Shown one piece after another: positions 3,080-62,706 of a stretch of DNA of 64,000 bases. The position numbers and the translations under genes are program-made. How positions within the stretch are numbered: position 1 is the first letter of the stretch; every line of letters begins with the position of its first letter. The notes below the pieces were generated by a model. It was not told the origin of the DNA. It ran no database searches and worked only from the letters and a program-made list of their open reading frames with translations. This DNA comes from Patescibacteria group bacterium (GTDB lineage Bacteria > Patescibacteriota > UBA1384 > XYA2-FULL-43-10): contig JBAYVT010000005.1 in the NCBI GenBank assembly GCA_041674405.1, forward strand, positions 77,047 to 141,046, in the 5' to 3' direction.

Positions 3080-3488
3080 TTACTAGCCTATCAGCCCTCT
3101 TGTTTTGTTCGCGTGGCACGTATGTAAAAATTAATTTTATGTGAAACTTGCACTTGATCTTATTCAACGAATCCAAAAGAATACTTATGCCCTCATTTTT
3201 TACCTTGTAATTTCCGTTGATTTGTTCAACTACCAGCTGGCTATCTAGCCGGCAAACAACTTCTGAATCAGGATTGTTGTTGTTTTTTAGCCACTTGCTT
3301 TTCTCGAGAATTAGAAGTGCTTTGAGAATCGCACGATATTCAGCCTGATTATTGGTAGTATTGCCGATAAATTCTTTATAAGAATGGATTTCAACTTCAT
3401 TTTCATCATAAAAAACCACTCCGATGCCTGCCGGACCCGGATTTCCTCTTGCCCCGCCGTCGGTATTTATATAGATCTTCGGCATCAA
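3048..3488 (-). CDS. rnhA: Ribonuclease H (RNase HI-like)
   Basis: 146 aa. DGGARGNPGPAGIGVV... carries the DEDD catalytic residues (D..E..D..N/D) of RNase H-like proteins. The 4-nt ATGA overlap with trpS suggests translational coupling. Confidence 0.75.
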   Translation of the reverse strand: MMPKIYINTDGGARGNPGPAGIGVVFYDENEVEIHSYKEFIGNTTNNQAEYRAILKALLILEKSKWLKNNNNPDSEVVCRLDSQLVVEQINGNYKVKNEGISILLDSLNKIKCKFHIKLIFTYVPREQNKRADRLVNEALDEKCKK

Positions 3489-4465
3489 ATTCCCAATCCA
3501 ACAGCCTTATGCACCCTTCCAAGGGTTTCTGTGGCAATAGGCCAAACTTTATTGGCTCCTTCGTTCAATAATTCCTTGATTTCAGATTCACTTGATATTA
3601 TTTTGTTGTATTTTTCCTGTATTGGGCGCAAATATTCAATAATGACTTCAGTCAAAGATTCCTTGAATTCCTTGTACCCTTTGCCGACAAACTCCCCTTC
3701 GATTGAGCTAATTTCTTTTCCGGTGACCTCGTGATAAATGTTCAATAAATTGGTGATCGCAGGCCTTTCTGTTCCAGATTTAACTTCCGATCCAGAATCG
3801 GTAACCGCGCGCATTATTTTTTGCTTGACAATGTCCGCTGTGTCAAACATTGAGATATAGTTGTTTGGGGTTGAAGATGATTTACTCATTTTCTTTTCCG
3901 GGTTATCAAGACCCATAATTCGGGCGGATGTTTTTTTAATTAGTGGCTCAGGTATAGTAAATATTTGGCCAAATTTGCTATTGAATCGAATGGCAATGTC
4001 ACGGGTTAGCTCAACATGCTGTTTTTGATCATCACCAACAGGCACATGGGTTGTCCCATAAAGAAGAATATCGGCCGCCATAAGGACGGGGTAATCGAAC
4101 AAACCGGCAGAAACCGAGTCAGAATCGCCTCCTTTATCTTTAAATTGGGTCATTCGTTTAAGTTCGCCAATATTTGTAAAACAATTCAAGATCCAGGCAA
4201 GTTCGGAATGTTCCGGTCTTTGAGACTGGACAAATAGAGATGATTTTTTAGGATCAATTCCTGCTGCCAAATAAAGCGCAGCCAAAGATATGATATTTTT
4301 CTGAAGCTCCTCGGGGTCTTTTGGTACAGTTATGGCATGAAGATCAACAATACAAAAAATAGATTGCTCGGCATCATTTTGAAGATCAATCCATTGTTTA
4401 ATTGCACCCAAATAATTTCCGATGTGTATTTGCCCTGTTGGCTGTATACCAGAAAAGATCTTCAT
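3485..4465 (-). CDS. trpS: Tryptophan--tRNA ligase
   Basis: 326 aa. Class I motifs: HIGH-like GQIHIGNYLG and KMSKS (KMSKSS), the TrpRS signature. Confidence 0.9.
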   Translation of the reverse strand: MKIFSGIQPTGQIHIGNYLGAIKQWIDLQNDAEQSIFCIVDLHAITVPKDPEELQKNIISLAALYLAAGIDPKKSSLFVQSQRPEHSELAWILNCFTNIGELKRMTQFKDKGGDSDSVSAGLFDYPVLMAADILLYGTTHVPVGDDQKQHVELTRDIAIRFNSKFGQIFTIPEPLIKKTSARIMGLDNPEKKMSKSSSTPNNYISMFDTADIVKQKIMRAVTDSGSEVKSGTERPAITNLLNIYHEVTGKEISSIEGEFVGKGYKEFKESLTEVIIEYLRPIQEKYNKIISSESEIKELLNEGANKVWPIATETLGRVHKAVGLGI

Positions 4466-19954: not shown

Positions 19955-20635
19955 CTATACAACTCTTTTTAATTTCTTCTTTGCCTGTTCTATTTGAATT
20001 ATTGCCTTGACGATGTCCTCATACATTTTATATCGGCTTTTTATCCCGGCCCAGATATCATCATTCTTTTCTTCCTTAATTACCTGGGTTAAACCGTGCA
20101 AAACCACAATCTCACGCCGCTCCTTTGGAACAGCCGCCGTAATCAATGCATCAACGCCGAATCTGGAATGTTTAATTTTTGCAAGTGGAGGCAAATTCTT
20201 CCGCCAAATCACACGTTGGCCGGAGATTGCAGGAAATGCCCTATTGGCGATTTTTGTGGTTGTAAGCTTATCAATATTGAATACACCAAGCGAAAGATCA
20301 GCCGTTTTCATAAATGCCACCGGTCCCAAAAGCTCCAAAATATGCCCCTCTGTTAAACCAATCAAGTCGGCATCCAAAAACAACAAAAGCGGATGGTGCG
20401 AATGTTTAATGCCATTATATAAAGCCATTCCCTTGCCGCCATTTTGTTTGTTTTTAAGAAGGCGTACATTTGAATATTTTTTAACAATTTCGCATGTTTT
20501 ATCCTTTGAGCAATCATCCACAACAATTTTTTCATCAATAAAATCAAGCGGAGCGACTACGTCGAGAACTTTGCGAATATTTTTTGCTTCGTTGTATGCA
20601 CAGATAATCAGTGAAATTTTTTGTTCAAATTTCAT
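19955..20635 (-). CDS. Family 2 glycosyltransferase
   Basis: 226 aa. N-terminal ISLIICAYNEAKNI...VVDDCSKDKT (DxD-type GT-A). Confidence 0.75.
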   Translation of the reverse strand: MKFEQKISLIICAYNEAKNIRKVLDVVAPLDFIDEKIVVDDCSKDKTCEIVKKYSNVRLLKNKQNGGKGMALYNGIKHSHHPLLLFLDADLIGLTEGHILELLGPVAFMKTADLSLGVFNIDKLTTTKIANRAFPAISGQRVIWRKNLPPLAKIKHSRFGVDALITAAVPKERREIVVLHGLTQVIKEEKNDDIWAGIKSRYKMYEDIVKAIIQIEQAKKKLKRVV

Positions 20636-20749
20636 CGCAGACTAATTATACCAAACTATAAAATAAAAATCAGTTTTTGTCGTATAAACGCAGCAACTCC
20701 CACAGACTGGCTGCGGGAGTTGGAGATCTGCCGTTCCCCGGAGGGAACA

Positions 20750-21277
20750 TTACGGCGCGTAGCTGGGGGGAGTGAGATGGCCAGCAATGGTCGTCCCGTT
20801 GTTCGTAGTGACGATGTCACCCTCCGCGGCGAAGTTGGCGGCGAGGCACGCCGCCGCGCCGTCTACCGAGATGTGGTTGCCGTCCATGGCGACCACCTCC
20901 ATCCACCAGGAGCCCTCCTCGTACTGCATCAGAAGATAGGGCTGGGTGCCCTGGCCCAGGTCCAGACTCCGAAGAGCCAGAGACAGGATCTCCTGGCTAG
21001 GCCGGATAGGGACCGACCCGACCTCGACATCGGCAGTGTTGTAGACCTTGATCTGGCCGTTGCCGGTCCCGTCGCGGGACATGGTCAAGTACGTGATGCC
21101 ATCGCCGCTGTCGAGGCGAGCGATGTTGCCCAAGCCGTCTGTGGCCCACTTCACACCCGCCGTCGGGAAGGCCGGGTCCACGCTTCCGCCTCCGCCACCA
21201 CCACAACCAGTCGAGATGAGGATCGCCACCAACATGGCGACCAGTCCGACCAACAACATCCATTTGCGCATGTTCAT
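20750..21277 (-). CDS. High-GC orphan lipoprotein-like protein (start ambiguous: Met at 21304, 21277 or 21271)
   Basis: Signal peptide MRKWMLLVGLVAMLVAILISTGCGGGGGG followed by a G/T/D-rich domain. GC is far above the flanks. The antisense 247-aa ORF is Arg-rich and looks spurious. Confidence 0.5.
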   Translation of the reverse strand: MNMRKWMLLVGLVAMLVAILISTGCGGGGGGSVDPAFPTAGVKWATDGLGNIARLDSGDGITYLTMSRDGTGNGQIKVYNTADVEVGSVPIRPSQEILSLALRSLDLGQGTQPYLLMQYEEGSWWMEVVAMDGNHISVDGAAACLAANFAAEGDIVTTNNGTTIAGHLTPPSYAP

Positions 21278-21540
21278 CACCTGTTCCAGGAGTTCGTACA
21301 CCATGTGGCGGCATACGTATTACAGCGCCATCAAACTAGCATATATTCAGCAATTTGTCAATAATAGATAATTATTTTCTGCCGTTATGCTACCGGCCAC
21401 AAAAAATTCTTCAGCCAAGCCAATCAAAAAATTTCCAACCATCTGGCTGGAAATTTTTTGTCAGACTTGCATACCTTTGTATATCCGAAACACAATGGAT
21501 AAGCATTGTGAAGTTGTTTTTAAAGCTACTTTATCCTAAT

Positions 21541-22257: not shown

Positions 22258-22474
22258 AAATTATTATTTAGGATATTGTTGGCTAATATAGTATCAGAAA
22301 CACAAGTTCAATTCCAGCCATTTTTTAATGACAAAATATCCAATCTGTAGGTGGATATCTTTGGCAATGTAAATATGCAAAGTTAGAACTTGTTATAATG
22401 CCGCATAATCAAAACGGCCGCCCCCGAAGAGGCGACCGTCTGATAATACACCGGAAACGCTCCGGCGCGACTCA

Positions 22475-23149
22475 CTAGCGAAGGCTGAGGTAGCCTTGCT
22501 TCAGTTGCTCGTGAGAGATGGTGATGGTGGCGTACAGCACCCGGTTCTCGTCGATCAGGCTTCCGGGATTCTCGAAGTTCCAGGACGGCAGCCAGAGCAA
22601 GTTGTCCACGTAGTACTTGAAGCGAACCACAGGGGGGCCTTGCTCGCTGGTCAGGACCTTCACCCTCTCCATCGGAAGAGAGCTAACGAAGGTTGGCACA
22701 TCTCCCCCGCTTTGGTTTTGGGGAAGCGACCAGCAGAAGACATAGCTGACTCCTGGCCGAGACTTTCCCTCGACGCTGCCCTCGACGTAGCCTCCGAGGA
22801 AATTGCCTCCCCCGCTTAGGCTTCCACTGAGGTCAGACTTCTGGCCTTTGCTCACCAGCGGGTTGAAGACCAGTGGATGGGGCCCGAGCAGATGGTATCT
22901 CTCCAACTGCCCAATGTTCCACTTCACCCATCCAGTATCTCTGGCAGACTTCTCTCTGGCCCGCTTGATGGCAGAGTCATAGAGTTCGAAGTTACCTATC
23001 CGTGGGTTAAAGCTTCGTTCCCAGAAGTAGTCGGGCGTGTCGAGCCTGACTTTCAGCCAAGACTTGTCCGCGGGAGTCAGCCCCTTGGAGCAGCCTACAA
23101 CTGACACACCTACCAACAGAACCAACAACACGACAGCGATCTTTCGCAT
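22475..23149 (-). CDS. High-GC orphan lipoprotein
   Basis: 224 aa. MRKIAVVLLVLLVGVSVVGCSKG is a signal peptide plus lipobox (VVGC). SD AGGAAGG upstream. A GC-rich hairpin plus T-tract follows at 22411-22440. Confidence 0.55.
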   Translation of the reverse strand: MRKIAVVLLVLLVGVSVVGCSKGLTPADKSWLKVRLDTPDYFWERSFNPRIGNFELYDSAIKRAREKSARDTGWVKWNIGQLERYHLLGPHPLVFNPLVSKGQKSDLSGSLSGGGNFLGGYVEGSVEGKSRPGVSYVFCWSLPQNQSGGDVPTFVSSLPMERVKVLTSEQGPPVVRFKYYVDNLLWLPSWNFENPGSLIDENRVLYATITISHEQLKQGYLSLR

Positions 23150-23271
23150 CTTGATCGTCCCTTCCTGGATATCGGTCTAGATTTGTGTTTCAGAGCTTAA
23201 ACACAATAACACAATATTACAAATATGTCAATTATTAACTTCATTGAAGTTATATAAATATAGAACTCAAC

Positions 23272-52982: not shown

Positions 52983-54341
52983 CTATTTTAATTTTCCGCA
53001 AATATGTTCTGTAACTTTATCAATGGCGACCCGCTCCTGTTTCATTGTGTCGCGATCGCGAATTGTGACTGAATTGTCTTTTAAGGAATCAAAATCAACC
53101 GTCACGCACCAAGGGGTCCCGATCTCATCCTGCCTTCTATACCTTCGACCAACCGAGCCTGATTCGTCATAAAACACATTGAGCCCTGCGGCCTTAAGCT
53201 CATCCGATATCTTCTTGGCAACCTCTGGAAGCCCCTCTTTCTTCATGAGTGGGAAAACGGCAACTTTCACCGGTGCTAGCTTGGGGTGCAAACGTAGGGT
53301 CACCTCGCCGGATTCGCGGCCATCCGATCCATCGGATTCATCATAGGCATCACAAAGGAAGGCGAGCAGTGCCCGGTCAATTCCCATCGAAGGCTCAACT
53401 ACATACGGAATGAAGCGTTTGCCGCCTTGTTCATCGAAATACGAAAGATCTGTGCCTGAGAACTTTGTGTGTTGTGAAAGATCGAAATCAGTTCGCTGGG
53501 CAATCCCGGCAAGCTCAGATTGGCCAAACGGATATTTATATTCGATATCAGACGTGCCGATCGAGTAATGCGACAGCTTCTCCTTCGGGTGTTCGTATAT
53601 AGCTAAATTGTCCTCTTTGATGCCGAGATCGGTGTAGAAATGTTTTACCGCATCGATCCAGGTAGTGTACCACTTTTTAGATTCCTCTTTGTCAGGCGTG
53701 ATGAAATACTCTATTTCAGCCTGCTCGAACTCACGCGTACGGAAAATATAGTTGCCAGGCGTGATTTCGTTCCTAAAAGCCTTTCCGATCTGGGCGATAC
53801 CGAATGGGATTTTTTTTCTCGACGATTCAGTCACGTTTTTGAAGTTGACGAATATACCCTGGGCAGTCTCACCACGCAGATATGTGAGGGTAGAGCTGTC
53901 TTCTACAGGACCCAGGAATGTCTTTACGAGAATATTGAAACTCTTCTCCTCTGTAAGCTCGCCGCCGCAATCCGGGCAAACGTCTTTCTCGAGCTGATCG
54001 GCTCGGAATCTGTGATGGCACTTTTTGCACTCACGAAGAGGATCGGTGAAGCCTGATCCTGTGTGACCAGAAGCCTCCCAAACCTTCGCATTCATGATTA
54101 TACCTGCATCGAGACCGACCATATCTTCGCGTGAAGTGACAAATTTCCTCCACCATTCGTCTTTCAGATTCCGCTTCATCTCCACGCCCAAGGGGCCAAA
54201 GTCGTACACTCCGCCGATTCCGCCATATATCTCGGAAGATTGGAATATAAATCCCCTTCTCTTGCAGAGCGAAATGATCTTATCCATTTTATCTCGAGAA
54301 GCGTCAGCGACGAGAGACGATTCCATATTTTCTTTGGCCAT
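52983..54341 (-). CDS. glyQS: Glycine--tRNA ligase (alpha2 type)
   Basis: 452 aa. The N-terminus ...IISLCKRRGFIFQSSEIYGGIGGVYDFGPLG is the GlyQS signature. Confidence 0.85.
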   Translation of the reverse strand: MAKENMESSLVADASRDKMDKIISLCKRRGFIFQSSEIYGGIGGVYDFGPLGVEMKRNLKDEWWRKFVTSREDMVGLDAGIIMNAKVWEASGHTGSGFTDPLRECKKCHHRFRADQLEKDVCPDCGGELTEEKSFNILVKTFLGPVEDSSTLTYLRGETAQGIFVNFKNVTESSRKKIPFGIAQIGKAFRNEITPGNYIFRTREFEQAEIEYFITPDKEESKKWYTTWIDAVKHFYTDLGIKEDNLAIYEHPKEKLSHYSIGTSDIEYKYPFGQSELAGIAQRTDFDLSQHTKFSGTDLSYFDEQGGKRFIPYVVEPSMGIDRALLAFLCDAYDESDGSDGRESGEVTLRLHPKLAPVKVAVFPLMKKEGLPEVAKKISDELKAAGLNVFYDESGSVGRRYRRQDEIGTPWCVTVDFDSLKDNSVTIRDRDTMKQERVAIDKVTEHICGKLK

Positions 54342-54493
54342 TTTAGGTCCTTTTGCTATTTCTAGATTCAGAATATCATTTTATTGCCAAATTCACAATC
54401 TATAGCTATTTACCTTGACTATTTGCCGGTTTTATGATATCGTGCTTACGCACCCATAGGGTGACTACTGAATTGCCAAGGAGGCAAACCGCT

Positions 54494-55378
54494 ATGCCAG
54501 TTAAAACGTCGCACCTCAGAACCCCGTACGTCAGGCAGTTTCTCCAAGCGTTCGACATGGACCTCGGGTTACTAGATGACCTCGAGGCACTCGTCGAAGC
54601 CTGCTCGAGCCGCAACAAGCGCTTCGAGAGGGGCATGGACAAGGTCCGCTTCGAGTTCGAGCGGGACCAGTCCAAGTGGAATCAGTCCCAGTTGGATGCT
54701 ATCTTCACGCTCTCCGAGCGTTGGAGAATGCGCCATGGGGAGACTCCCTTCAAGGAAGGGTCTTCCTACGACTTGATCGTTACTATGGGCGGAGCCAGAC
54801 TCTCTCCGTGGCAGCGCGGTGCCTATGCCGCCTTGGCAATGTCCGAGGGTCGTGTGAAGGCTAGTACCTTGGTCATCGGCGGATCCAAACGGCACCTGCC
54901 GATGGCAGAGCTTCCGTTCATCACCGACTACGTCGATGTTGAGCGGCTGGTGTCCGAACGCAACCACCAGACCTTCTTGGTCGGCGGCGAAGAGAAATCG
55001 TGCATCACTGAGCATGACCTCTGCCTGGCCGCAGAAGCCAAGCTCGTGAAGGCTCATCCCGATCTCCACATCGTCACGATCTGCGTAGACATGGAGAGGG
55101 CGGGCAACCACGATGTCATCGCTGAGGTCATGAACCACAAGGAGCTCTTCCACTCCGACCGCGCACTATCCGTGGCTGGTGTGTCCACTCAGCTCTACGC
55201 GACCGGCCTGGACGCTGACCTCTGGCTGGACGCCGACACGCATGACTGGCGATACTACTCCGCAATCGGCCACCCGGTCGACCCGATCTACTCCGACCGC
55301 CGCACTCCGACCGTGTACTTCAACGAAATTCAGACGACCATGTGCAAGAAGGCACTGGCCGAGCTCAAGGGCTACTAG
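54494..55378 (+). CDS. High-GC orphan DUF218/YdcF(SanA)-like protein
   Basis: Start preferred at MPVKTSHL, preceded by CCAAGGAGGCaaaccgctATG. The ...DLIVTMGGARLSPWQRGAYAALAMSEGRVKASTLVIGGS...EEKSCITEHDLC... pattern resembles the DUF218 core. GC is far above the flanks. Confidence 0.5.
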   Translation: MPVKTSHLRTPYVRQFLQAFDMDLGLLDDLEALVEACSSRNKRFERGMDKVRFEFERDQSKWNQSQLDAIFTLSERWRMRHGETPFKEGSSYDLIVTMGGARLSPWQRGAYAALAMSEGRVKASTLVIGGSKRHLPMAELPFITDYVDVERLVSERNHQTFLVGGEEKSCITEHDLCLAAEAKLVKAHPDLHIVTICVDMERAGNHDVIAEVMNHKELFHSDRALSVAGVSTQLYATGLDADLWLDADTHDWRYYSAIGHPVDPIYSDRRTPTVYFNEIQTTMCKKALAELKGY

Positions 55379-55430
55379 CCCACAACTTACTGAGATCCGC
55401 CTAGTGGCGGATAATGACTCTACCGCCGCA

Positions 55431-55465
55431 GGCGAGTCCCACTCCGGGGCTCGCCTGTTGCATTT
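55431..55465 (+). terminator. GC-rich hairpin terminator after the high-GC DUF218-like gene
   Basis: GGCGAGTCCC-actcc-GGGGCTCGCC followed by TGTTGCATTTTAT. It is preceded by a second hairpin TCCGCC-tagt-GGCGGA (55396-55411). Confidence 0.5.
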
Positions 55466-55520
55466 TATCGTCGAACAATCGACGATCGTTCATTTTTCGA
55501 CGATGATCAAATATAAAAAA

Positions 55521-56258
55521 TTATTTCACATTATTCAAAAATTTTTTGCTTTTTAAATTCTTTTCCAAAATAGTTCGTATATACTCATCCAAAATTTGGT
55601 CTATTTCTTGCTCGATACTCTTGTCGAGCTTTAGTTTGCCAATGGTTTCAAAATCATTTTTCTCGATAAACCGCAGCGCTTTTATAAATTCGTTCGATAT
55701 TTTTGTACCCCGACTGGTCGGGGCACAATTCTTGCAGATTACTCCGCCCTCTAAATTGTCCCAATAGTTCTCCCCTTCGGTGATTTTTTCTTTGCAGTTT
55801 ACACACTCATAAAACTCCGGCTGAAATCCTGCTGTTTCAATAAGTTTAAGGGCAAAGGCATTGATCAAAAAGTTCTTTTCATTTTTCTCGATAAGATCGA
55901 GAATTTGCGCGAGAATTTTGTAAGTTTGCTCTGATTTTTCGTTTTCATGCAGAAAATTATCGACAAGTTCGCCGGCTACATAGGCCTTCGCCATTTTGGG
56001 AAGATCGCAGTGCAATTTTGAAAATTCAGAAATAATTTCCGCGCCGGTGATTGTATAAAAAGTTTTGCCCTCATAAAGCTGAAAATCGACAACCATAAAT
56101 GGCTCCAGGTGGCCGCCAAGCCTGGATGTGGATTTTCGGACTCCGCGCGAAATCGCCTTCACCTTACCAAATCGCTCCGTTAAAATCGTCAAAATACGAT
56201 CGGCTTCGCCAAAATTCATACGTTTTATTACGATTCCATTTGTTCTATATGAGTTCAT
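55521..56258 (-). CDS. recO: DNA repair protein RecO
   Basis: Start preferred at MNSYRTNGIVIKRMNFGEADRILT..., overlapping the upstream stop (ATGA). C-terminal zinc-binding Cys pairs are present. Confidence 0.8.
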   Translation of the reverse strand: MNSYRTNGIVIKRMNFGEADRILTILTERFGKVKAISRGVRKSTSRLGGHLEPFMVVDFQLYEGKTFYTITGAEIISEFSKLHCDLPKMAKAYVAGELVDNFLHENEKSEQTYKILAQILDLIEKNEKNFLINAFALKLIETAGFQPEFYECVNCKEKITEGENYWDNLEGGVICKNCAPTSRGTKISNEFIKALRFIEKNDFETIGKLKLDKSIEQEIDQILDEYIRTILEKNLKSKKFLNNVK

Positions 56259-57031
56259 TTTTGAATCGAAATATTTGAATATACAGCATAGGGCTTGTGG
56301 GATAACGTAGCCCACATCTGATCACCGAAAGAATAGTGCCACCACTCGGTAGGGTTATTTACAAACCCTTCTCCAAGCATCACCCAATACAAAAGCCGGC
56401 GATTTTCTCTGAATTCTATTTGTTCAGAATCTTCAATTTCTAATTTTTCCAAGAAATCAGTGAAAACCGACTCTTCCATTTCATCAAATTTTGCTCCCAT
56501 ATTGAGAAATTCTTTCGAGCCGATTTTACATAAAGTTAGATCAACAGCAGCACCAGTGGTATGCGGCGGCGGCGATTTCGGGTCAACTTCCCATGTTCCA
56601 TTCTTGTTCACGTAAGCCCAAAAATTATTAACTTCGTTTTTAATTTTTTCTTCTGACCAATCCTGATGTAATTTTTTGAAATGATGCGGTGCCCACTCAT
56701 CGTGCATAAATTTCTGCACCTCCGGCGGCCGGTATGTGTCGCGAACAAAAAGCTCGACTCCGGCTGGTTTTAATTCCTGATTTATTTTGACTAATTTATC
56801 CGCAACAGTTTTTCGAGCAAAAAGATTTGGTATCGCACCTAAGACCCTGCCGCCATCATCAAGTTTGAAATTGAAGTAATAATTTTCACCGGCGATGCCA
56901 AGTGTTAGAAGATCAACCACATCATCATCTTCTGGCTTGATAGGCAAATCTCTATAACCAAACTTTTGATTTCGAATATCATCAAGATTTGGTATCGGCG
57001 TATTTTTGAATTTTTCAATTTTTTGATTCAT
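56255..57031 (-). CDS. ddpX: D-alanyl-D-alanine dipeptidase (VanX/DdpX, peptidase M15D)
   Basis: 258 aa. Zn-binding and catalytic motifs ...PPHTTGAAVDLTL... and EWWHY. Confidence 0.75.
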   Translation of the reverse strand: MNQKIEKFKNTPIPNLDDIRNQKFGYRDLPIKPEDDDVVDLLTLGIAGENYYFNFKLDDGGRVLGAIPNLFARKTVADKLVKINQELKPAGVELFVRDTYRPPEVQKFMHDEWAPHHFKKLHQDWSEEKIKNEVNNFWAYVNKNGTWEVDPKSPPPHTTGAAVDLTLCKIGSKEFLNMGAKFDEMEESVFTDFLEKLEIEDSEQIEFRENRRLLYWVMLGEGFVNNPTEWWHYSFGDQMWATLSHKPYAVYSNISIQK

Positions 57032-57036
57032 GTGCC

Positions 57037-57786
57037 TTAGTTCTTAATTCTGGATGTTAAAACATTTTCCACTTGTTGTAGTTGTTCTGGTGTGTTTATG
57101 CCGAGAACTTCGGTTTCGTCGGCAATTTTTACCGCACTGATTTTTTTGCCCTGATCTTTAGCCATTTTTATGACATCCGTAAGGTAATATTCACCTTGCG
57201 TATTGTTGGTTTTAATATTTGCTAGATTTTTCCAAAGCCAGAGAGAGTCGAAAACATAAAAAGCCGGATTGCATTCTGTGGTTTTTAGCTGTTCTTCATC
57301 GCAATCTTTGTGTTCAATAATTGCATCAACGTTACCTTCAGTGTTTCGAATTATCCTGCCGTAGCCTGTCGGGTCAGAGTATTCCACGGTAAGCATTGCG
57401 ATCGTTGGTTTTTCATTTGTGTATAGATCGATGAGATTTTTGATCGTTTCGGGTTTGAATAATGGGGCATCGCCGCAACAAACTATGACCGCATCCGATT
57501 TGCCTTCCAGATTTACTCGCGCAGACATTGTCGCATGGCCAGTGCCGAGCTGTTCTTCCTGTACTGCATACTCAACCTGGTCTTTAAAATAATCGCGGAC
57601 AATTTCTTGTTTATATCCCACAACAAGAACAATTTTCTTAAGGCCAGCATCGCATAACGATTGAATCAAATAACTTACTACCGGTTTACCATTCGCCTTA
57701 AACATGACTTTTGGGATTTCTGATCCATTTTCGCTACCCATGCGTTTCCCCTTCCCTGCCGCGAGCACAACTGCTGCAATTTCCAT
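57037..57786 (-). CDS. Sugar-phosphate nucleotidyltransferase (GlmU N-terminal-like NTP transferase)
   Basis: 249 aa. AAVVLAAGKGKRM glycine-rich loop. There is no left-handed beta-helix domain. Confidence 0.65.
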   Translation of the reverse strand: MEIAAVVLAAGKGKRMGSENGSEIPKVMFKANGKPVVSYLIQSLCDAGLKKIVLVVGYKQEIVRDYFKDQVEYAVQEEQLGTGHATMSARVNLEGKSDAVIVCCGDAPLFKPETIKNLIDLYTNEKPTIAMLTVEYSDPTGYGRIIRNTEGNVDAIIEHKDCDEEQLKTTECNPAFYVFDSLWLWKNLANIKTNNTQGEYYLTDVIKMAKDQGKKISAVKIADETEVLGINTPEQLQQVENVLTSRIKN

Positions 57787-57814
57787 TTTGATTTCCTTTC
57801 AATTATTCATGCCC

Positions 57815-57823
57815 ATTATATCA
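57815..57823 (-). promoter_or_regulatory. Extended -10 element (TGATATAAT) for the nucleotidyltransferase gene
   Basis: Minus sense: GGGCCCaattcTGATATAATgggcatgaataattgaaaggaaatcaaaATG. It lies immediately downstream of the palindrome GGGCCCCGAC-tatt-GTCGGGGCCC (57829-57852). Confidence 0.4.
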
Positions 57824-57989
57824 GAATTGGGCCCCGACTATTGTCGGGGCCCTGTGCTCTCCTCCTCTCTCGGCGGAGGATCACCGAGCCAATACGCGAA
57901 TGGCGGCTCGGCCAGTGGGTCATCTTTGAGTATCTCGGCCCAGGTTGTCTTCTCTTCGTTTGTCATCGCTCTCATGATTTCGACACTCC

Positions 57990-58220
57990 TTAGCAAGACA
58001 GATGTTGCCAGCGGCCAGTGCCGTCAGCGTACGAACGCATGCACTTTCCATGGCCACAGCCGATTTCTCCGCATGCAACGCACCTTTTGAGGCTATTGCG
58101 CTCTCTGCCAGTTTTCTTGGACGGAGCATGTAAACCCGCGTCACAGTGGGGGCATTTTCCCCCGTTCGCGGTGATTCTCCAGCTGCGGTTCCTTCTGTTC
58201 TGACGCTTGCTTGTCGCCAT
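57990..58220 (-). CDS. High-GC orphan zinc-ribbon miniprotein
   Basis: 76 aa with CPHC-x18-CVAC and a further ...CGHGKC. SD AAGGAGGccaggATG. Alternative-frame ORFs are low-complexity and treated as spurious. Confidence 0.45.
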   Translation of the reverse strand: MATSKRQNRRNRSWRITANGGKCPHCDAGLHAPSKKTGRERNSLKRCVACGEIGCGHGKCMRSYADGTGRWQHLSC

Positions 58221-58284
58221 CCTGGCCTCCTTGGCTGTTTGGTTTCGAAAAGCTTAACCGGTTTAAGCCCTTCGAGCCAAAAAC

Positions 58285-58312
58285 AAAAAACCGCCCTAGT
58301 GGCGGCCTTTTG
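58285..58312 (-). terminator. Intrinsic terminator of the CYTH-domain gene
   Basis: Minus sense: AAAAGGCCGCC-acta-GGGCGGTTTTTTGTTTTT. The stem sequence is near-identical to the hairpin at 55396-55411. Confidence 0.6.
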
Positions 58313-62274: not shown

Positions 62275-62305
62275 TAACAGCGATAAAAAGCAAGAGCGGA
62301 CAGCT
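62275..62305 (-). terminator. Intrinsic terminator of the 106-aa higher-GC gene
   Basis: Minus sense: GCAAGAGC-agctgtcc-GCTCTTGC-TTTTTAT. An alternative GCGGAC/GTCCGC pairing overlaps it. Confidence 0.55.
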
Positions 62306-62323
62306 GCTCTTGCCGTCCGCCGG

Positions 62324-62644
62324 TCACCCGAGAAGCTCGTTATGCCTCACCGGGTTGAAACTCATTACTTCCCATCCATGCTGGGCCTCTTCTAGGAGCA
62401 CGTTTGGGTCATGTTCAACTTCGGTGTACTCGTGCATGAGCATTCCGTCCTCCACTAGCGTGTATGCTTCATTGCCGCTACTGCCACCGTAGTTATACAC
62501 CCTGATCGTCGCAATCCAGGGATCGAGAAGCCCAACCTCCAGCATCCATAAGAATGGCGCACTACCCTCGAACCTGGCAAACCCATTCTGCTCGCGCTGC
62601 CTTTGCAGCTCAAGGAGGATCAACCGCTTTTCTTTTTCGGTCAT
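62324..62644 (-). CDS. Higher-GC orphan hypothetical protein
   Basis: 106 aa. SD GAGGTGA 6 nt from the ATG. A hairpin CAGTATA-gata-TATACTG lies in its upstream region. Confidence 0.45.
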   Translation of the reverse strand: MTEKEKRLILLELQRQREQNGFARFEGSAPFLWMLEVGLLDPWIATIRVYNYGGSSGNEAYTLVEDGMLMHEYTEVEHDPNVLLEEAQHGWEVMSFNPVRHNELLG

Positions 62645-62706
62645 GCTTCGTCACCTCAAAAATCAGTATAGATATATACTGAAAATAAATCAAAAGAGAA
62701 CAAAAA

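Follow-up and report, generated by a model that had tools for sequence, protein, structure and literature searches.

Escherichia coli YdcF (PDB 3CA8) is a cytoplasmic DUF218 protein that has been reported to bind S-adenosyl-L-methionine. Two other DUF218 proteins, SanA and ElyC, have been connected in E. coli with the synthesis of peptidoglycan and of the envelope (PMC12176290). SanA, ElyC, and YgjQ are membrane-anchored periplasmic proteins of Enterobacterales that take part in balancing the synthesis of peptidoglycan and enterobacterial common antigen (PMC12176290, PMC3879167), and the SanA triad T125/H149/E182 is essential (PMC12176290). Here, we analyzed a GC-rich gene cassette located between glyQS and recO in a 64,000-nucleotide stretch of contig JBAYVT010000005.1 from a Patescibacteria group bacterium; this whole stretch is hereafter called the window. 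An earlier note, made from the sequence alone, had described the cassette as an island at 54440-55470 carrying a DUF218/YdcF-like gene. Horizontal gene transfer hotspots are found between core genes, and phage 'morons' are single genes of deviant composition that carry a promoter and a terminator of their own. Acquired genes are usually richer in AT than their host.

The locus was compared with these systems. It resembles hotspots and morons in that a slot between core genes holds differing accessory genes in close relatives, and in that each cassette deviates in composition, brings a promoter and a terminator of its own, and lacks a mobility gene. It is unlike them in that the slot cassettes are GC-richer than the host, the same family recurs across deeply diverged genomes with a conserved leader, and there is no phage context. 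The encoded protein is like YdcF, the closest solved fold, in fold class and cytoplasmic location; however, it is only 8% identical to YdcF with no significant sequence or profile match, and it has an extra N-terminal helical region of approximately 85 aa, a conserved set of its own (R52, R108, R133, E139, E173, and Y235), and an insertion of approximately 16 aa. The family may be linked to SanA, ElyC, and YgjQ by a remote fold and by a cell-wall theme (a D-Ala-D-Ala dipeptidase neighbor and an mraZ-ftsL-PBP-mur cluster; PBP, penicillin-binding protein), but the window protein has neither membrane anchor nor signal peptide and its family occurs in Patescibacteria instead of Enterobacterales.

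We propose that the interval between glyQS and recO is a gene-flux hotspot in a low-GC, Berkelbacteria-like Patescibacteria lineage, at which cassettes, all of them GC-richer than the chromosome, would be gained and replaced laterally as whole units, and that the window cassette encodes a cytoplasmic protein of remote YdcF-type fold with a role in peptidoglycan-precursor metabolism. We assign this joint explanation a probability of roughly one half.

Composition and anatomy of the cassette

A GC walk gave limits for the GC-rich block (Table 1) that nearly coincided with those of the island described earlier, the block beginning just past the -10 element and ending with the terminator stem. GC dropped to 0.41 in the 300 nt to the left and 0.34 in the 300 nt to the right. 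The GC content of the cassette gene was 0.592 and that at third codon positions (GC3) was 0.782, compared with 0.396 ± 0.028 and 0.362 ± 0.041 in 50 other window genes (z = +10.1 for GC3). A codon adaptation index-like value calculated relative to the window genes was 0.536 against 0.732 ± 0.021 (z = -9.4). The comparison of GC and codon adaptation proposed in the earlier note thus revealed a strong deviation, and the gene has the deviant composition and codon usage of a genomic island. The protein itself was shifted to residues with GC-rich codons (GARP 0.25 and FYMINK 0.21 vs 0.22 and 0.33 in the window proteins).

The feature is a single-gene expression unit composed of a promoter, a two-hairpin leader, a strong Shine-Dalgarno (SD) sequence, a coding sequence (CDS), and a terminator; the roles of the promoter and leader are those suggested by their sequences. 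The start codon was backed by the AAGGAGG upstream, by the deposited NCBI protein P0001 (100% identity over 294 aa; recorded as 'hypothetical protein WC080_04300, Patescibacteria group bacterium' on a 395,669-bp contig), and by homologue alignments beginning at about residue 8-16. The strong SD reported earlier was present, but the gap from CCAAGGAGGC to the ATG counted 8 nt, not 7 nt. The -35 element TTGACT was unchanged across six related genomes in alignments and in a pattern search over loci. In the leader, hairpin 1 is CACCC-ATA-GGGTG (54451-54463), and in hairpin 2 TTGCC pairs with GGCAA around AAGGA, partly covering the SD. Both GC hairpins described past the stop codon were found, and the 3′ untranslated region folded at -44 kcal/mol (z = -5.8 vs shuffles). 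The AT-rich palindrome at 55467-55504 more probably serves as the terminator on the recO side. Transcription would start near 54450, which would place hairpin 1 at the 5′ terminus. A 5′-terminal hairpin is a common mRNA-stabilizing arrangement. Given its strong SD and terminator, the cassette may well be expressed on its own, without dependence on either the divergent glyQS or the convergent recO.

Nearly all neighbors lie on the minus strand, in agreement with the description of a lone plus-strand open reading frame (ORF), and both glyQS and recO were confirmed by Pfam, which also identified an NTP-transferase among the neighbors. The slot adjoins the mraZ-ftsL-PBP-mur cluster. The 193-aa antisense ORF, already judged spurious in the earlier note, was rejected as a gene, because the codon usage should give rise to long stop-free antisense stretches: at least 193 stop-free antisense codons were present in 15% of the synonymous-codon shuffles, and every GC-rich relative showed such a stretch of 102-275 codons.

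Two simple causes of the high GC were also rejected. Head-on orientation does not account for it, since two further GC islands of the window are co-oriented with their neighbors and the other plus-strand genes have normal GC. Expression-linked codon bias was dismissed since no other window gene exceeded a GC3 of 0.52. This value belongs to the glycyl-tRNA synthetase (GlyRS) gene, which is mildly raised (z = +3.9) and highest among the ordinary window genes; the window GlyRS is 52-55% identical to actinobacterial enzymes (Actinoplanes and similar).

The abrupt change of composition inside a metagenome-assembled genome (MAG) could in principle reflect foreign high-GC reads spliced into a low-GC contig. 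However, a 1,995-bp Logan contig from run SRR22315508, assembled separately by a second assembler, was 100% identical across both cassette edges, although it may share the reads of the MAG. In addition, the AT-rich promoter and the GC-rich leader form one coherent conserved unit, and at least nine other assemblies, which come from separate runs and projects, have the same architecture. A chimera is therefore extremely unlikely.

Table 1 Coordinates of the cassette, its borders, and GC-rich ORFans (positions in the window unless a locus is named).
Feature	Position	Strand	Remarks
Mechanical ORF	54434..55378	+	Open-reading-frame limits
CDS, 294 aa, predicted soluble protein of an unnamed family	54494..55378	+	Start is ATG 54494
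Sigma-70-like promoter (putative)	54415..54443	+	-35 TTGACT, 17-nt spacer, TG-extended -10 TATCGT; from a consensus scan
Conserved 5′ leader	54444..54493	+	Two hairpins
Shine-Dalgarno AAGGAGG	54478..54484	+	9 nt upstream of ATG; GGAGGC invariant in six leaders
GC-rich block	54441..55455	+	GC 0.59; from GC walk
Antisense ORF, 193 aa	54572..55153	-	By-product of GC3-rich codon usage
First 3′ hairpin	55395..55412	+	7-bp stem ATCCGCC/GGCGGAT, loop TAGT
Intrinsic-terminator-like hairpin	55428..55458	+	13 pairs, 9 of them G-C; followed by T-rich tail TTGCATTTTAT
glyQS (class II GlyRS), left border of slot	52983..54341	-	Divergent from cassette; Pfam
recO, right border of slot	55521..56315	-	Convergent on cassette; Pfam
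Peptidase_M15 D-Ala-D-Ala dipeptidase (VanX/DdpX type)	56255..57031	-	PF01427, E 3.4e-23; one gene past recO
GC-rich ORFans in relatives	L101 1731-2600; L109 792-1499, 2465-2962; L108 1182-1445; L009 5170-6063; L012 4415-4798		

The slot in related genomes and cassette replacement

A total of 80 GlyRS loci from GTDB species representatives were scanned. In a scan for related loci, the first family alignment was too diverse, and a tighter one worked. Further look-ups and a metagenome scan added family members in the loci L090, L101, L103, L107, L108, L109, and L110. The closest relatives of the window were Berkelbacteria-like MAGs, with 62-63% identical GlyRS and DNA only 65-70% identical. The proposed synteny check revealed the same family in the same slot in relatives, namely P0003, L009, L011, L103, L107, L108, and L109. 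The order NTP-transferase-recO-slot-glyQS-mraZ was kept in L010, L011, and L012. The member P0003 (34% identical) lies in the order murD-mraY-murF-PBP-mraZ-glyRS(-), member(+), recO(-), and P0005 of L009 in the order glyRS(-), member(+), recO(-)-NUDIX-NTP-transferase. The GC and GC3 of the L009 member were 0.58 and 0.72 in surroundings of 0.32-0.40. The database protein P0005 (L009 1068-1142) is over-extended at its N-terminus, where approximately the first 20 residues correspond to a translation of the conserved leader; the protein probably starts at the TTG after GGAGGCGATACAG.

In all low-GC loci for which DNA was available, members had a GC of 0.55-0.62 and a GC3 of 0.62-0.78 against flanks of 0.37-0.44 (0.43-0.45 in L108), and at least 10 related low-GC assemblies carry an equally GC-rich member that is 30-48% identical. 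The single insertion implied by the earlier note was thus contradicted. The readable neighbors of the GC-rich members were glyQS, recO, an M15 D-Ala-D-Ala dipeptidase, or a PaaX-like gene. The family showed native composition in mid-GC contigs (0.39-0.57) that were judged to be Saccharibacteria-like by gene content, in the contexts TrmB(-)/CofD-member-P-type ATPase or member-M15 dipeptidase-PolA.

These data also bear on a one-off recent transfer from a high-GC organism outside Patescibacteria, such as an actinobacterial host. The GC3 of 0.78, the shifted amino acid composition, and the cassette's own promoter and terminator are what such a transfer would bring. Against this, no member was present at any of the scanned GlyRS loci (80 in number) that come from other phyla, many of them from Actinoplanes, all family representatives with readable context lie in Patescibacteria-type contigs, and the presence of the same family in the same slot of diverged relatives already contradicts a single event. 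We regard this origin as very unlikely.

The leader and promoter are common to six genomes (the window, L009, L103, L107, L108, and L110); a motif search over the loci found the leader in L107, L108, L110/L111, L103, and L009, and it occurs once in the window. In each of them, an invariant TTGACT and a TG-extended -10 are followed by two hairpins, the 5′ one of the form CACCC-N3-5-GGGTG and the other a small one that overlaps part of GGAGGC. The mean column identity of promoter and leader was 72%. Both hairpins belonged to the minimum free energy structure in five of the six leaders with modest z-scores, and the covariation was too weak to claim a structure. No Rfam match was obtained for the leader at E ≤ 1 over 54350-55560, and a known riboswitch or RNA family was rejected.

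The comparison of L011 and L012 is a direct case of cassette replacement. Their flanks are 77-82% identical in DNA, and non-homologous inserts are present at identical breakpoints: 1,135 bp with a family member (GC 0.62) in L011, and 694 bp with an unrelated GC-rich 127-aa ORF, in a slot that also holds a PaaX-like gene, in L012. Other content was found in L010 (a Cu-oxidase_4 gene and a pilin) and L013, and the L109 slot holds three GC-rich genes. Content polymorphism among close relatives, a mark of genomic islands, is therefore present, in relatives rather than in the window's own species. No degraded remnant of the family was detected in the slots of L010, L012, and L013. In a neighbor-joining tree, the window allele fell in one clade with those of P0003, L107, L108, L009, L103, L109, and L110, and the L011 allele in a different subclade. 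The fourfold sites of GlyRS were at random expectation between the window and its relatives, with a slight residual signal for L109 only. Because the synonymous sites of the host are saturated, a neutral, vertically inherited gene should have lost a foreign composition.

A palindrome of approximately 45 nt (…ACATCAACAAATTCAAACGATCGTGTGAAATTGCTGATGT…) was observed on both sides of the PaaX-like gene, at 3081-3125 and 3750-3795 of L011 and at 3519-3563 and 4189-4235 of L012. One copy coincides exactly with the breakpoint of the cassette, and the element may serve as a bidirectional terminator or as a site of recombination. The palindrome at 55467-55504 of the window has the same ACGATCGT core. 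As a recombination site, the L011/L012 palindrome was rejected, since only the ACGATCGT core is common with the window and, in those other loci that were inspected by eye, the DNA downstream of the member showed nothing similar.

Alternatively, the gene could be an ancient resident that entered the slot once in an ancestor and was inherited vertically, its transcribed region being held GC-rich against AT-biased mutation either through GC-biased gene conversion or through selection acting on the mRNA or the DNA. The same family occupies the same slot and strand in the window, P0003, L009, L011, L103, L108, and L109, and the single clade containing the window allele fits this history. So do the conservation of promoter and leader despite saturated host synonymous sites, the coincidence of the GC-rich block with the transcription unit, and the identity among members (30-48%), which resembles that of the neighboring M15 gene (27-33%). 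However, no known bacterial process raises the GC3 of one gene alone by +0.25 to +0.4; to our knowledge, reported effects of gene conversion on composition are far smaller. Vertical inheritance is also at odds with the position of the L011 allele and with the outright replacement by an unrelated cassette between L011 and L012. Moreover, the identity of members does not track that of their hosts: members and GlyRS were 48% and 62% identical between L103 and L009, but 33% and 84% between the window and L109. Finally, unrelated ORFans in the window and its relatives are also GC-rich, pointing to a shared source or process and not to selection on the cassette gene. Long residence is thus a possible but rather unlikely history, and we prefer lateral turnover of whole cassettes.

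Protein family and fold

The window protein had no match in Pfam, NCBIfam, PHROGs, or PADLOC, even at E ≤ 10, and the empty PHROGs and PADLOC searches lend no support to a phage or defense role. Sequence searches of the PDB with the single protein and with the family profile were also empty. In a word-indexed search of 5.8 billion proteins, the single sequence recovered only itself and the family profile recovered eight proteins. By contrast, an exhaustive phmmer search of 1.84 billion cluster representatives yielded 54 proteins at E ≤ 1e-3, 35 of them at E ≤ 1e-10. The homologues are 25-38% identical and mostly 265-300 aa long. Nearly invariant residues are R52, A101, R108, G130, R133, E139, E173, L176, and Y235, and the family motifs are ETPL, LGGARQ..LDR, AGSxR, TExDLC, AGT, VTTQIY, PSDP, and ATYLSE. 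The window protein is a divergent member, with an insertion (VDVERLVSERNHQTFLVGGEEKSCI) that relatives do not have and AGN where most have AGT. The family has neither a name nor a Pfam or NCBIfam model, and apparently it is restricted to Patescibacteria so far.

Neither a signal peptide nor a membrane segment was detected in the window protein, and the maximum hydropathy was 0.88 (Kyte-Doolittle, 19 residues). These features predict a soluble, cytoplasmic protein and, for the protein itself, do not support the envelope association suggested earlier; it does not have the N-terminal inner-membrane anchor and periplasmic domain that define the SanA/ElyC/YgjQ subgroup.

The structure was predicted with AlphaFold2 using the family alignment (pLDDT 93.3, pTM 0.90); a single-sequence model was discarded (pLDDT 33). 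The model consists of the N-terminal helical region and a Rossmann-like alpha/beta domain. The BFVD structure with the best TM score was a 'YdcF family protein' (TMt 0.58, probability 0.97). Foldseek against the PDB gave only generic SRP-GTPase and E1-enzyme matches, all with TM below 0.3; these were judged meaningless, being driven by the combination of a helical N-terminus and a Rossmann architecture.

The assignment to DUF218 (PF02698) was then weighed at the profile level. The hidden Markov model (HMM) search suggested in the earlier note gave no match for the window protein at E ≤ 10, the sequence-level outcome that the note had named as speaking against its own proposal. Among the 54 homologues, 14 matched PF02698 at E ≤ 1 (best E 9.7e-4), all below the gathering threshold of 27.6 bits and, the members being related, not as independent matches. 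The best homologues and the family consensus reached 12-17 bits. The alignments always covered profile positions 1 to approximately 50, in the same beta1-loop-alpha1-beta2 motif D-x-V-I-x-LGGAR...AGS. No other Pfam family recurred in more than two of the 54 members, and an NCBIfam control gave singletons only. When two family alignments were compared by hhalign with YdcF, with 16 YdcF orthologues, and with SanA, ElyC, YgjQ, and YdcF together, the probability was 0.5-4% (E 0.01-0.1, 29-40 columns), the DUF218 profiles being shallow. By motif order only, AGT (AGN in the window) would correspond to the SanA Thr, VTTQIY to the His position of xTQxFH, and ATYLSE to the Glu; the His of the triad is thus seemingly replaced by Tyr or Gln in the family, and the Thr by Asn in the window protein.

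These results could also be explained by a generic Rossmann-like nucleotide-binding domain of the HUP/USP class whose likeness to YdcF is convergent or only at the class level. The lack of any significant sequence or profile match would be expected in that case, as would the absence of YdcF near the top of the PDB matches, the restriction of the Pfam matches to the first beta-alpha-beta unit, and the deviations at the triad positions seen by inspection. On the other hand, the best-TM BFVD match is a YdcF family protein, and DUF218 is the only recurrent Pfam family, at a fixed position and with a clean control. As to the USP or adenine-nucleotide alpha-hydrolase-like (HUP) domains themselves, only approximately 113 residues align, and none of the 54 members has a USP Pfam match. 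We consider this class-level resemblance somewhat unlikely, and rated the window protein as having the YdcF-type fold: the model and the recurrent sub-threshold matches make a remote YdcF-type fold likely, whereas DUF218 membership is not demonstrable by sequence. Of the earlier DUF218/YdcF-like assignment, therefore, the guess at the fold stood and membership by sequence or profile did not.

Proposed function and other GC-rich islands

A glycine-rich loop, three invariant arginines, two glutamates, and one tyrosine suggest an anionic or nucleotide-type ligand. Binding would probably involve the glycine-rich loop that follows strand 1 (LGGAR...R) and the conserved Arg, Glu, and Tyr, and, as in YdcF and proteins of the HUP class, the site may lie along the C-terminal sheet edge. 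M15 homologues were found directly beside family members in seven other loci. In the native contigs L091, L092, L093, L095, and L097, the member is followed by Peptidase_M15 on the same strand, with a gap of only 5 nt in L091 and 13 nt in L093; in L103 and L107, the two genes are divergent, and in the window they are separated by one gene. This repeated tight pairing, a CofD/YvcK-type neighbor elsewhere, and the division and cell-wall cluster adjacent to the slot in the window point to a role in peptidoglycan-precursor metabolism, in which the protein would probably act alongside the D-Ala-D-Ala dipeptidase in precursor turnover or editing. In L010, the Cu-oxidase_4 (YfiH/PgeF-type) gene of the slot (3326-4159, minus strand) had a GC of 0.47 against 0.34. 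This family has been linked to peptidoglycan editing.

Several points weigh against the joint explanation. The sole demonstrated swap lies in L011 and L012, outside the lineage of the window, whose nearest relatives share only 65-70% of their DNA sequence with it. No GC-rich donor, with a native GC3 of at least 0.75, was found; the members of native composition have a GC3 of only 0.30-0.65 against 0.78 in the window gene. The AT-rich promoter and the leader shared by six cassettes fit long residence or exchange among low-GC genomes, neither of which supplies the GC. The slot contains no integrase or other mobility gene, and no tRNA gene lies closer than 24 kb. The flanks share just one repeat, an imperfect 15-mer matching at 12/15 positions (54377-54391 and 55461-55475), which is consistent with chance and was rejected as an att-like repeat at the island edges. 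Searches of phages, plasmids, and viral contigs gave no relatives. As to function, the evidence for the peptidoglycan link consists entirely of gene neighborhoods.

GC-rich segments were also seen elsewhere in the window. A second single-gene island (20601-21400) contains the minus-strand ORF 20750..21304 (GC 0.63, GC3 0.83, z = +11), a 184-aa lipoprotein-like ORFan (…LISTGCGGGG) with no Pfam match and an AT-rich promoter-like region upstream. A third (22351-23150) contains the minus-strand ORF 22475..23149 (GC 0.57, GC3 0.72, z = +8.7), a 224-aa lipoprotein-like ORFan (…VSVVGCSKG), also with no Pfam match. At 57751-58300, a stretch lacking long ORFs that separates the NTP-transferase gene from the following gene, GC rose to 0.56, and another local peak of 0.56 occurred at 62301-62650; neither segment had an Rfam match at E ≤ 0.1. 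A 76-aa Cys-rich ORF at 57990..58220 on the minus strand (CxxC…CxxC) could encode a small zinc-ribbon protein. In relatives, GC-rich ORFans (GC 0.51-0.58; Table 1) lie beside low-GC housekeeping genes, none with a Pfam match. It seems that these genomes generally contain GC-rich orphan cassettes.

A more speculative view, which we consider improbable, is that a dedicated process in the low-GC Patescibacteria of this lineage makes or maintains GC-rich, promoter-to-terminator single-gene cassettes at fixed slots. The process may be a strongly GC-biased conversion or repair limited to certain transcription units, or import from a hidden reservoir of GC-rich cassettes. If so, the two-hairpin leader would be part of the system, and the cassette gene, the two lipoprotein islands of the window, and the ORFans in L101, L108, L109, and L012 would be products of one mechanism.

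Returning to the favored explanation of lateral cassette turnover and a YdcF-type protein, the locus does not overturn current understanding and is an ordinary to moderately unusual accessory locus. The persistent GC excess stands out as its most interesting puzzle: a member that is 30-48% identical between genomes keeps its GC3 of 0.62-0.78 in chromosomes of approximately 0.36-0.47, an outcome not expected under simple amelioration. The alternatives are a rapid turnover of cassettes from an unsampled GC-rich pool and a local process that holds the GC up. The likely remote DUF218-type fold was invisible to HMM libraries and was recovered only by exhaustive collection of homologues followed by structure prediction. 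The result is a new family of 54 cluster representatives with a confident structural model and a VanX-type D-Ala-D-Ala dipeptidase as its candidate functional partner, in the ultra-small, host-dependent Patescibacteria, whose handling of cell-wall precursors is poorly understood.

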